Assembly: GCA_965218435.1 (NCBI GenBank)
Contig: CBDCKW010000009.1
Location: 1,856,001 to 1,920,000, forward strand
Reading direction: 5' to 3'
Source of the DNA: Truepera sp.
GTDB taxonomy: Bacteria; Deinococcota; Deinococci; Deinococcales; Trueperaceae
DNA: 64,000 nt
Each line of letters starts with the position of its first letter. The stretch's first letter is position 1. A model generated the notes under the pieces. The model ran no database searches and was not told where the DNA came from. It was given only the letters and a program-made list of their open reading frames with translations. Below are positions 51,095-55,421 of this stretch, piece by piece. The position numbers and the translations under genes are program-made.

Positions 51095-51227
51095 CTAAAA
51101 CCTCCATACCAATAAGTTTACCTGTCTTGCTACGACAAATTAGTTGGCGACACGTAAACTTTCATGCATCACAACTCAAGAGCGGTTTTCGTTTATAGTT
51201 TAGCTAGAACAGCTTTTGAGAGGCTTT

Positions 51228-51422
51228 GTGGGAGAAAACAAGCGCCTGAAGAAACAGTTGGAAGGATTGCAACTTCAGGTGGACAAACACAACCTCAAGA
51301 TTGCTGACGAGTTGCGAAGAGAGCATCCTGATCGCGGCCTTATAGAGCACTGGCAGAGAGAAGTAGATACATGGCGAACACAAGTTCAAAAGAAAAGAGA
51401 CCGGCTCGAGCGGAAACGCTAG
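51228..51422 (+). CDS. Small basic helical hypothetical protein
   Basis: MGENKRLKKQLEGL...PDRGLIEHWQRE...; GAGAGG RBS. Confidence 0.65.
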   Translation: MGENKRLKKQLEGLQLQVDKHNLKIADELRREHPDRGLIEHWQREVDTWRTQVQKKRDRLERKR

Positions 51423-51697
51423 ATAGAATTCTAAACATTCCCGGTGTGGTCGGTGAACCCGTCTGGAAAGAGTTAGCCGACGAAGCCGAGGTGTATCTCG
51501 AGCTGTACAAACACCTGTCTAAAGAACCGCTGGATTCACCTGAACGTGAAGCGTTAGAAGACAAGATGGTTATGTCGCTAGCACACCTTTCTACGCACAG
51601 TAAAATTCTCTACGCTTCAGTTGACGAAGCTATAGAGACAAACTTAATTGAAGAAGTAAAGTTTGAGAATGACTTGCAGGAAAGTTTTGTTGAAACT

Positions 51698-52774
51698 CTA
51701 AGTACGGGACAAAAGCCGAATACAGAAGTGTAGATCGTGATGTTTAAGGGGTAGATTCTTAAGCAGATGCCTGAGATGATCGAGACCATGCCTAAAGAAT
51801 GATTTTTCTCTGCGGAGGTGTGACTTAAGGCGCAAAGGCTTTTGCTTAGTGTCGTGGAGCCATTCTCCTATATGATGCGCCCAGGTAAAGGCAAGAGCTA
51901 GCAGCGTAAAAAGGGTGTCAAGCCGAGCGAGTTGAGTGAGATGGGTTGACTCCATATCAAAGCCTGTTTTCTTTAGAGCAGCAAAAAGCATTTCTATCTC
52001 CCAACGACGCTTGTAGGTGAGAAAGGCTTGAGCGGGCTTACGGTTGGTAGCAATGATGGCGTAGTCGTCGTGGGCGAGCTTCATACCGACAAGGCGTAAG
52101 CGGCAACCATGGAGGTTGCAAGTGTTGCTGACTATCTTGAGTTCACCTATAGGCAAAGATGCAAAAAGCGCATAGGCTGAACACCAGGGGTTGCATAAGC
52201 TATCCTTGCGAATACGAATAGCAAAAGGAACGTGGCGCTTATCCAGGTAGTTAAACCAAGTTACCCCGATAAACTCTCTATCTGCCAAGAAAAAGTCGAT
52301 ATCTCGGGGCTTGACAAGCTCGAAAAGGCGTTGTAGCAGGTCAATGCGCTCATCGTCTGACGAGTTGCCTCGCTTCTCCAGAAAACTCCAAACTATAGGA
52401 AAGGCAACGCCTCTATGGGCAATGGCGATTACCAGGATGTTGATATCGCACCTGCCGAACTGCCAGTTCGTCCGGTCAACGCAAACGGTATAAGGCGGCG
52501 GCGGTAAAAAGCTCAAAATCAGTTGGGCCACCTTGAGCTTATCCAGACGCACCTCTGCAAAAAAACGCTTGAGGCGGCGATAAGATGATTCCGGTTGAGC
52601 TGCGCCTTGAAACGCTAAGCTTAAACTGACCAGGTTGATGCTCTTCTCTTGCACAAGTACCAGCAACAAGGTACTCAGACATTTCAGCCTGGCTCCATTC
52701 ATAGGCAACTTCGCTGCTAGCGTTTCTTTCAGTCTTGTCTTATGCTGATAGTGGCTTCCTTGAGATTCTTTCAC
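51698..52774 (-). CDS. IS4-family DDE transposase
   Basis: VDRTNW, ADREF, YKRRWEIE...K (YREK motif); intact ORF. Confidence 0.93.
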   Translation of the reverse strand: MKESQGSHYQHKTRLKETLAAKLPMNGARLKCLSTLLLVLVQEKSINLVSLSLAFQGAAQPESSYRRLKRFFAEVRLDKLKVAQLILSFLPPPPYTVCVDRTNWQFGRCDINILVIAIAHRGVAFPIVWSFLEKRGNSSDDERIDLLQRLFELVKPRDIDFFLADREFIGVTWFNYLDKRHVPFAIRIRKDSLCNPWCSAYALFASLPIGELKIVSNTCNLHGCRLRLVGMKLAHDDYAIIATNRKPAQAFLTYKRRWEIEMLFAALKKTGFDMESTHLTQLARLDTLFTLLALAFTWAHHIGEWLHDTKQKPLRLKSHLRREKSFFRHGLDHLRHLLKNLPLKHHDLHFCIRLLSRT

Positions 52775-52826
52775 ACAGCTATTCTCGCTTAGGAAGCCGC
52801 TTCTTGTCTTTTTGTCCCGTACTTAG
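51698..52826 (-). mobile_element. IS4-family (IS10-like) insertion sequence, 1129 bp
   Basis: 17-bp perfect IRs CTAAGTACGGGACAAAA (51698-51714 / 52810-52826); 9-bp TSD GTTGAAACT (51689-51697, 52827-52835). Confidence 0.95.
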
Positions 52827-53045
52827 GTTGAAACTATAGAGGTAGAAACACATAAATCACTGGGGATGGGTACATGGGTACGTCTGCACAAGAAGCTATA
52901 GTAGACTTCTGGAATTACCTTAACAGGTTGACAGTAGAGCATGGGCAGGAGCTTGAAAGAGAAAGGTTGGAGCTACAAAAGATTACCAGTTCAAAAAGTG
53001 GTAGAGCAAAGAAAAACAAAGAAGTTAATCGACTTCTTGATAGCA

Positions 53046-53155
53046 CTACAAACCTTGTCAATCAATATACAGATAGAATCAGGCTGTGCTACTTGCCGGA
53101 TGCGTCCCCACCACCCGCCTACAAACCTTGTCAATCAATATACAGATAGAATCAG
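53046..53155. repeat. 37-bp perfect direct repeat flanking a 36-bp unique insert
   Basis: CTACAAACCTTGTCAATCAATATACAGATAGAATCAG at 53046-53082 and 53119-53155. Confidence 0.95.
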
Positions 53156-53454
53156 CACAAGATTACCCGAATACAGATACAACGTAGGAAAGTATGTTGA
53201 AGCTTATCCAAAATTCGCCTTTTGGTTTGCCAGCACAGATAAGAGCGAAGAGGCGCAAAGGCAAGAGTTATACAGAGCTTTGAGAGACTTCAAAGAGACC
53301 TCAGAAAGCCTTGTTGGTAGCATGTCTGAATTTATAGACAATGTACAAGGGCTTGGACGTACTGCTTTAGAAGACTTAGGTCATACAGGACTTAATAATG
53401 CTTGTATGAAGTTGGTCGGAAAATTGGTAGGTACGCTAGATACAGTGAGAGAAT

Positions 53455-54028
53455 TAAACGACCACCGCCAGAGGCGGTGGATTTGAAAATGACTCTAGAA
53501 GAGAAAGTCCTGCTGATTGCGTTCTTCCTCTTTTTCGCGCTTCTCTTGGTACTTCACATAACGACGGATCAGGTCTTCGTTTATACCTACAGTGTTGACA
53601 AAGTAACCGCGTGTCCAAAAGTGATTCCCCCAGTATGGTTTCTTCCGTAAGCCTGGCTAGCTTTTGAACAACTTGATGGCAAGCTTCCCTTTGAGAAATC
53701 CCATGAAATCCGATACTGACAACTTGGGAGGAATTGAACAAACCAAGTGGATGTGATCGGCTTGAACACTCAGCTCTATTACTTCTACAGAGCGCCACTC
53801 ACAAAGCGTATGGACGTCCTTCTCAACCAACTCTTTGACCATACCCGTCAGCACTCGGTAACGGTATTTAGGCACCCACACAATGTGGTAATTACACTGA
53901 TAGACAACGTGCGCAAGCTTTCTATACTTCCCCACGCCTTAGGGTACGACCTATGTGTCCCAGGCGAAACAGTAAGGCATAGCCGACGTTACATCACCAC
54001 CGCCAAAGACGGTGGGTTTTCACGCTAA
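53455..54028 (-). mobile_element. IS200/IS605-family element (tnpA only); ends approximate
   Basis: Subterminal hairpins CCACCGCC-AGA-GGCGGTGG (53462-53480) and CCACCGCC-AAA-GACGGTGG (53997-54015). Confidence 0.85.
53495..53935 (-). pseudogene. tnpA: Y1/HUH transposase TnpA with a nonsense codon
   Basis: YHIVWVPKYR, DHIH; TAG at 53657-53659, then PGLRKKPYWGNHFWTRGYFVNTVG...YVKYQ in the same frame. Confidence 0.9.
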
Positions 54029-54029
54029 A

Positions 54030-55421
54030 CTAAACTTCGAGCAGCATCCTCGCCGGGTTTTCTACCGCGTCTTTGACGCGTTTTAAGAACGTCACCGCTT
54101 CACGTCCGTCTACAATCCGGTGGTCGTAGGTCAGCGCGATGTACATCATGGGGCGGATGACCACTTCGCCGTTTAGGGCAATGGGCCGCTCGAAGATGCC
54201 GTGCATCCCCAAAACGCCCGACTGCGGCGGATTGACAATCGGTGTAGACATCAGGGAGCCGAACACGCCACCGTTTGAGATGGTAAAGGTGCCGCCTTGC
54301 AGCTCTTCAGGCGTAATCTTATTGGTCTGCGCCCGTTTGCCGAACTCGGAGATGGTGCGCTCGAGTTCCGCGAAACTCAGCCGCTCAGCACTGCGAATCA
54401 CCGGCACGAGCAAGCCCTTTTTCGAGCTGACCGCGACGCCGATGTCGTAGTAATTTTTGTAAACGATCTGCTGCTCACGAATTTCGGCGTTAAGCTGCGG
54501 AATCTGTTTAAGTCCGTCGATCACGGCTTTGACAAAAAACGACATAAAACCCAAACGCGTGCCCTCGTAGCGTTTTTGGAACTCCTCTTTGAACTCGCTC
54601 CGAAGGTCCATTACGGCGCTCATATCAACTTCGTTAAAGGTGGTGAGTAGGGCAGCGTTCGCCTGCGCTTCGACGAGCCGCTCGGCGATGCGGCGGCGCA
54701 GTGGACTCATCGGCACAGCTTCTTCTTGCCGGTCACCGGTTGAAGTTTGCGGCGCTGAAGTCGGTGCGGGGGTTTCTTTCGGCGCGGGTTTTTGCTGGAC
54801 TTCTTGCTGTGATTTTTTCTGTGGTGCAGGCTCCCTGCTCTGCTCATCTACGGTGCGCTGCACGTCTTCTTTAAGGACGCGGCCCCCCGGACCGGTCGCG
54901 CGTACATCCCTTGCAGACAAACCGTGCTCGTCTAACAGGCGCTGCGCGGCAGGCATGATGCGCACGTCCTCCGCGCCGCTTTCAGAAACATTGTCGGAGA
55001 GTTTTTGAGCTTGCGCGTCCGTAGCTTCGCCGGGTTCCGGGTCGAAGGCCATCTCCGGCGCTTCGTCTTTTTCACGTTCTGCAGAGGCTGATTCATCGGA
55101 CGCACCCGCTTCGGTTTCGCTACGCTCGGCGTTATCGTCGGTACCGGCGTCTTCAGTACCGGTATCACCAGCACTCGAGTCACCTGCTGCGTCGCCGACT
55201 TGCGCGATAACTTCGCCGACGGTAGCCGAGTCGCCCTGCTGTTTGGTCACGCCGCTTAAAATCCCGGAAACTGGGGCGGGAACCTCGAGCGTCGCCTTGT
55301 CGGTTTCAATCTCAACTAGCGGCTCGTCTTTTTCGACCGTTTCCCCATCCTGTTTAAGCCACGAGCCGATAAAGACTTCCGTAATGGACTCGCCGACTTC
55401 AGGAACTTTTACTTCAGCCAT
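54030..55421 (-). CDS. sucB: 2-oxoglutarate dehydrogenase E2 (dihydrolipoamide succinyltransferase)
   Basis: ETDKAT lipoyl site, [17 protein letters not shown]. Confidence 0.95.

Follow-up and report, generated by a model that had tools for sequence, protein, structure and literature searches.

A gene fragment between two insertion sequences

The window, by which we mean the whole stretch of 64,000 nucleotides of Truepera sp. DNA that was analysed, carries an AT-rich island (GC 0.40-0.50, compared with 0.55-0.65 in the surrounding DNA) between lpdA and sucB, two genes that belong to the 2-oxoglutarate dehydrogenase cluster. Inside this island lie the remains of a hypothetical gene, for which a Pfam search returned no family. 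The copy in the window carries four lesions: an IS4-like element, an 8-bp duplication, a 73-bp event and an IS200/605-like element. Besides the gene remains, the island (51100-54030) holds a small coiled-coil-like ORF (51216-51422), and the same island is found beside lpdA in G005, another member of the genus.

The N-terminal part of the gene (51371..51697, plus strand) aligns to the N-termini of the protein homologues P0002, P0004 and P0005 and, with blastn, to G005. It is severed by the IS4-like insertion sequence (51698..52826, minus strand), a 1129-bp element with a DDE transposase that has one identical copy and six copies at approximately 76% identity elsewhere in the genome. The element is flanked by a 9-bp target duplication (51689-51697 and 52827-52835, GTTGAAACT). 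Located 220 bp from the structure described below, this duplication serves as an internal control for the footprint of a transposition, and it is unlike the 37 bp found there. Further along, a tandem duplication of 2 x 8 bp (52866..52881, plus strand) shows up as an 8-column gap in the alignment to G005. The 8-bp unit is present twice in the window whereas none of the 8 bases is present in G005, which amounts to a further frameshift; the second unit supplies the ATG at which P0003, the protein of a sister strain, begins.

What follows of the gene is split over two reading frames. The 5' piece (52874..53149, plus strand, 91 aa) reads into an insert and stops inside the right-hand copy of a repeat, and the 3' piece (53121..53486, plus strand) continues in a frame shifted by 73 bp and takes its last codons from the end of the IS200/605-like element. 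The latter (53452..54035, minus strand) has hairpin ends, carries a fragment of a Y1 transposase and truncates the 3' end of the host gene. It measures approximately 583 bp and no duplication was found at its ends. Five other copies in the genome are 100% identical to it, which would suggest a recent spread. Its transposase ORF of 92 aa looks short, covering positions 2-82 of a family profile of 121 positions.

The two gene pieces are set apart by the 73-bp event, which has a simple anatomy. A direct repeat of 37 nt occurs as a left copy (53046..53082), corresponding to a single copy in G005, and a right copy (53119..53155) that is 100% identical to it, with a start-to-start spacing of 73. An insert of 36 bp (53083..53118) sits between them, so that the layout is 37 + 36 + 37. 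Counted on the window sequence, the GC content is 12/37 in each copy and 25/36 in the insert. Because the outer neighbouring bases of the two copies are unlike (a/c on the left, g/c on the right), the borders between the 37-bp and 36-bp parts are unambiguous and cannot shift. Both copies consist of coding sequence of the host and encode TNLVNQYTDRI in both ORFs. Removing 73 bp joins the frame of the ORF starting at 52874 with the frame that opens at 53121. A preliminary description of this region had reported an exact 37-bp duplication around a unique 36-bp insert, together with the GC counts, the encoded peptide and a frame restored by deleting 73 bp. We could reproduce all of these, with agreement down to the coordinates and the letters of the insert, and the alignment to G005 bears out the restored frame. 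The same description went on to read the structure as a fossil of off-target spacer acquisition by Cas1-Cas2 that disrupted a gene, possibly a CRISPR array at birth.

Empty sites and the source of the insert

A DNA search for the gene fragment was carried out on 61 genomes (the window genome and 60 relatives) and found it in one other genus member, G005, at 89-91% identity. The match consists of two pieces with subject ranges that overlap by exactly 37 bases. In the alignment the 37-mer is present once in G005, with 4 substitutions, the insert is missing and the gap spans exactly 73 columns. The gene of G005 forms an intact ORF of 260 aa and adjoins lpdA, as it does in the window. When this ORF was compared against genome contigs for more empty sites, 72 pattern matches were obtained and 0 were confirmed.

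A protein search yielded seven relatives of the host gene fragment. One of these, P0003 (179 aa), is encoded on a 3,866,234-nt contig of another assembly and reads straight through a single copy of the 37-mer, without the insert; this strain-level empty site is known from the protein record only. P0003 is identical to the fragment in the window at 69/69 positions of the 5' piece and 120/121 positions of the 3' piece. It starts at the same methionine just past the IS4-like element and ends with the same C-terminal residues, derived from the end of the IS200/605-like element. Its contig also encodes a Cas1c that is identical at 341/343 positions to the one of the window genome, indicating a very close but distinct strain and not the same reads reassembled. 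A single copy of the 37-mer is likewise seen in the more distant homologues P0002, P0004, P0005 (304 aa) and P0007. Uninterrupted homologues, which the preliminary description had proposed to align, are thus available both as DNA within the genus and as protein in a near-identical strain.

Given that P0003 has both IS-derived ends and lacks the insert, the 73-bp event would be younger than both IS insertions and than the split from this strain, which is approximately 99% identical in protein. Alternatively, the sister strain may have lost the insert by recombination between the two 37-bp copies. Under either history the 73 bp is an insertion. The claim that a gene was disrupted is weaker: the 73 bp shifts the frame, but no working gene was killed, since two IS elements had previously cut the ORF down to a fragment and P0003 shares both IS-derived ends without carrying the insert.

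The whole 4.8-Mb genome contains no second occurrence of the 36-mer or the 37-mer, and the best other genome matches of the 36-mer are 14/14 and 17/18. The insert is also unlike the IS ends, unlike nearby sequence and unlike the native spacers. A match to an adjacent IS end or to nearby sequence had been named in the preliminary description as the sign of template switching, and no such match is present. A tandem duplication through slippage was considered and rejected, as neither the empty-site allele nor the remainder of the genome contains the 36 bp.

Sources outside the genome were sought in three ways. Comparing the 36-mer to phages and plasmids with blastn gave only partial matches of 21-24 nt with E-values of at least 0.3, a search through 128 family genomes that tolerated as many as 3 mismatches recovered the 36-mer in the window genome only, and scans of contigs from viruses, genomes and metagenomes returned 0 matches, these last being restricted to exact matches so that diverged sources would be missed. 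The native spacers give a similar picture: among the 18 spacers of the type I-C array 0 matched phages, the plasmid matches are other arrays, and no source was found in the own genome. For this reason the blank result for the insert carries little weight. As no protospacer was found, no PAM or orientation can be read.

Native CRISPR-Cas systems and the target site

The genome has two matches each for cas1 and cas2, all without stops. One pair is part of a complete chromosomal type I-C system (cas3, cas5c, cas8c, cas7 (Csd2), cas4, cas1c and cas2), whose Cas1c reaches 503 bits with the type I-C model. Its array comes after cas2 (C9:2954576-2955912) and comprises 18 exact repeats of 37 nt and one degenerate last repeat. 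The 18 spacers are 34 nt (3), 35 nt (9), 36 nt (5) or 37 nt (1) long, giving a period of 71-74. The other pair belongs to a type I-B locus (C3:1-14000; cas6, cas8b, cas7, cas5, cas3, cas4, cas1b and cas2) on a contig of 50 kb, possibly a plasmid, with an array of approximately 57 repeats of 30 nt.

The duplication at the locus has the length of the native type I-C repeat (37 bp), the insert of 36 bp falls within the range of the native spacers (5/18 are of exactly this length) and the period of 73 is within that of the array. With repeats of 30 nt for type I-B, only the type I-C integrase fits of the two. The main test suggested in the preliminary description was to look for Cas1-Cas2 and for native arrays with repeats of about 36-37 and spacers of about 36. 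Two pairs of the enzymes are present, one of the two arrays has the expected dimensions, and 37 + 36 = 73 matches type I-C and not type I-B; the test was therefore passed with an internal control.

Similar structures were searched for in the whole genome. An exact scan for direct repeats of at least 16 bp at distances of 20-300 gave 177 pairs, of which 39 are outside both CRISPR arrays and 38 of these 39 have an intervening spacer. Our structure is the second longest exact pair outside the arrays; the longest (38 bp with a 7-bp spacer) is a short-period coding repeat, and the next pair with a real spacer measures 25 bp at a distance of 141. It is the sole exact non-array pair of at least 25 bp with a spacer of 25-50 bp. 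A degenerate scan (37-mers identical at 31/37 positions or more and lying 38-130 apart) gave 13 non-array matches, which apart from our structure were read as short-period tandem repeats, tRNA-like duplicates and short palindromic repeats on plasmid contigs. Looser scans, from which short-period repeats were removed, gave 7 matches for 30-mers (at least 25/30) and 13 for 37-mers (at least 28/37), the others being in-frame coding repeats, tRNA duplicates and palindromic operator-like pairs. Neither the exact nor the degenerate scans revealed further scars of either CRISPR system in the 4.8-Mb genome, and a scar with a duplication of 30 bp, as type I-B would leave, was found nowhere in it. The arrangement of repeat, unique spacer and repeat is not due to chance. 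With a single scar in the genome, there is no recurrence that could lend support.

The target itself shows little resemblance to the native array. Compared with the native leader and repeat, the site has 12/57 identical positions in forward and 15/57 in reverse orientation; random positions of the genome average 14.3 (sd 3.3). Shifted registers versus the native leader and repeat are no better and all remain at background level. The border bases are C...G at the target versus G...C in the native repeat. The composition is more extreme: the 37-mer is among the AT-richest 0.8% of all 37-mers of the genome, and its 137-bp context falls in the lowest 0.07% for GC.

Origin of the structure and its relation to known spacer integration

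We attribute the structure to a naturally occurring event in which the type I-C Cas1-Cas2 integrated a spacer off target, with a probability of roughly 0.88. In this scenario the integrase, probably together with Cas4, would have inserted a 36-bp prespacer into the chromosome outside a CRISPR array, the target being a gene fragment, already dead and very AT-rich, that lies between two IS elements. The two strands would have been attacked 37 bp apart, which is the length of the type I-C repeat. Gap repair would subsequently have copied the 37 bp between the attack points, presumably in this order of steps, leaving a repeat-spacer-repeat in which host sequence surrounds foreign sequence. The resulting scar would be a by-product rather than a working array. 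From eight features listed for an off-target scar, five are present here (the duplication length, the insert length, intact cas1/cas2, empty sites and an unrelated insert); likeness of the target to the leader-repeat or to the repeat is absent. Off-target spacer acquisition, as proposed in the preliminary description, is supported by the Cas1-Cas2 genes, the geometry, the empty sites and the unique insert.

A staggered double-strand break of a different origin (a nuclease, for instance, or an aborted transposition), followed by fill-in and end-joining of a stray 36-bp fragment, would leave a similar arrangement, with the CRISPR dimensions being a coincidence. We consider this improbable. Such a break would explain why the site lacks similarity to the native leader or repeat, and the region is a hot spot of mobile elements, given the IS4-like element, the IS200/605-like element and the 8-bp duplication within 1.8 kb. 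However, the IS4-like element gives 9 bp and no duplication is found for the other element. We know of no process that gives a stagger of 37 bp. Moreover, coincidence would have to account for both 37 and 36 falling on the native type I-C values, and for the occurrence of just one such structure in 4.8 Mb.

Still less probable is a nascent CRISPR array in working order, whose transcript the type I-C Cas5c would process and which could gain further spacers. The repeat-spacer-repeat form with native dimensions would agree with this, and off-target integration can spawn new arrays in E. coli according to papers citing the E. coli study named below. Differences with the native array are pronounced, however. 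In the native repeat, a 9-bp hairpin (-17.7 kcal/mol, z -4.5) precedes a tail of 11 nt, whereas the new repeat is unstructured on both strands (-1.0 and -1.8 kcal/mol, no better than shuffles) and has an identity to the native repeat of 6/37 forward and 11/37 reverse. Lacking this hairpin, the new repeat is unlikely to serve a working array. In addition, a simple consensus scan gave 0 sigma-70-like promoters in 52600-53500, and there is one unit only. The suggestion of an array at birth in the preliminary description is thus not supported as a function.

A transposable-element footprint or miniature copy, in which the 36 bp would remain from an element that had duplicated 37 bp of its target, is very improbable even though two IS families adjoin the gene fragment: the 36-mer occurs just once and has no match in the IS elements or in other genome sequence, a terminal inverted repeat could not be seen by eye in the window sequence, and IS duplications here are 9 bp or none. 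Finally, an assembly artefact has a nearly negligible probability, for although no single read contig spans the whole stretch and the 37-bp repeat, being longer than the 31-mer word, creates a graph loop at the scar, the insert is recovered in contigs of two sequencing runs with the repeat on both sides and at depths that roughly add up.

These two runs (X1 and X2, from one sample) each have a 96-nt contig covering 53053-53148, in which the insert is bordered by 30 nt of repeat at either end, the maximum for a 31-mer graph at a branch. The junction in the reads, a further check put forward in the preliminary description, is thereby seen with repeat sequence on either side of the spacer. The depth of the insert contig is 321 in X1 and 55 in X2, and the flanks have depths of 427 and 417 in X1 and 83 and 80 in X2. 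For the 37-nt repeat contig the depth approximates the sum of flank and insert (750 versus 427+321 in X1, 140 versus 83+55 in X2). As X1 and X2 may be the assembly's own data, they do not represent independent support. In a third run (X3) none of the sampled words from the stretch was found, which is no proof of absence. The ratio of insert to flank depth is 0.76 in X1 and 0.67 in X2. This lower depth could reflect a bias or a sub-population without the insert, between which contig depths cannot decide. Apart from the junction, the X2 contig has a T at position 53208 where the window and X1 have a C, which changes Pro to Ser; Ser is also present in P0003 and G005. The cultures of the one sample may truly differ at this position, or one sequencing method may have introduced a systematic error.

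Off-target spacer integration is already known, and the scar is a very clean single bacterial example for type I-C. According to papers that cite it, the study of Nivala, Shipman and Church (Nat Microbiol 2018) described non-canonical integration leading to 'neo-CRISPR' loci in E. coli type I-E. Those loci resemble ours in having a spacer-sized insert between repeat-length copies of host sequence, outside arrays and in a genome with Cas1-Cas2. They differ in that Cas1-Cas2 was over-produced in E. coli, whereas here we are dealing with a type I-C system with Cas4, a duplication of 37 bp, native expression and a wild strain. According to a citing preprint, the paper also had 'circumstantial evidence' in two other species. 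Most of what is known about off-target integration comes from E. coli strains with over-produced Cas1-Cas2 and from reactions in the test tube, and documented natural cases are few. The two other species are reportedly Yersinia pestis and Sulfolobus islandicus. Our literature search for a natural off-target case of type I-C found none, which is not a proof of absence.

The in vitro work on Cas1-Cas2 of P. furiosus (PMC6698737) reports full-site off-target integrations at sites one repeat length apart. Opposite-strand attack sites with this spacing in non-CRISPR DNA, as described there, are what the 37-bp duplication needs. The P. furiosus sites share positionally conserved bases with the repeat (30 bp in that system) and have G or C borders (PMC6698737). 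The scar has borders C and G as well, with an internal likeness at background level. In E. coli too, off-target sites are said to resemble the repeat, and compared with this published tendency the site here stands apart in having no likeness to leader or repeat. The resemblance is a tendency from two other systems and not a proven requirement for type I-C. The unlike and AT-rich site found here suggests that it is the integrase complex itself that sets the spacing of 37 bp, and that easily deformable AT-rich DNA may suffice as a target.

Canonical type I-C acquisition shares with the scar the units of a 37-nt repeat and a 34-37-nt spacer. It differs in using the leader-proximal repeat, while the scar lies at another place, has no leader and duplicates host coding DNA. 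Target duplications of IS elements are alike in that a direct duplication of the target flanks the inserted DNA. Here the contrast is one of scale and content: 9 bp around a multi-copy transposase element of 1129 bp for the IS4-like element, against 37 bp around 36 single-copy, non-coding bases.

The case is unusually clean, with one event, exact borders and empty sites at two evolutionary distances. The two CRISPR systems in one cell provide an internal control and the neighbouring IS duplication a contrast. The scar offers a natural substrate for work on repeat measurement by a type I-C integrase (with Cas4) in DNA that contains no repeat. It bears on the origin of CRISPR arrays and on the self-inflicted mutational cost of adaptation, without representing a new kind of system. 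More tentatively, and with considerable doubt on our side, it might be argued that a wild type I-C system at native expression integrated a spacer at a site unlike leader and repeat within the AT-richest thousandth of the chromosome, and that the outcome is polymorphic between strains of approximately 99% identity and possibly within a culture. If true, the 37-bp spacing would belong to the integrase complex rather than to the repeat sequence, and AT-rich DNA alone could serve as a target. Off-target writing would then be a current and measurable mutational cost of CRISPR adaptation in nature, and its scars would leave raw material for new arrays.

A last observation concerns the native type I-C repeat. 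Within the genus the 37-nt repeat occurs only in the window genome (18 copies) and in G001 (44 copies), with none in G005. The repeat family resembles arrays on Deinococcus and Streptomyces plasmids, with the repeats being responsible for the array-wide matches (64-67% identity).
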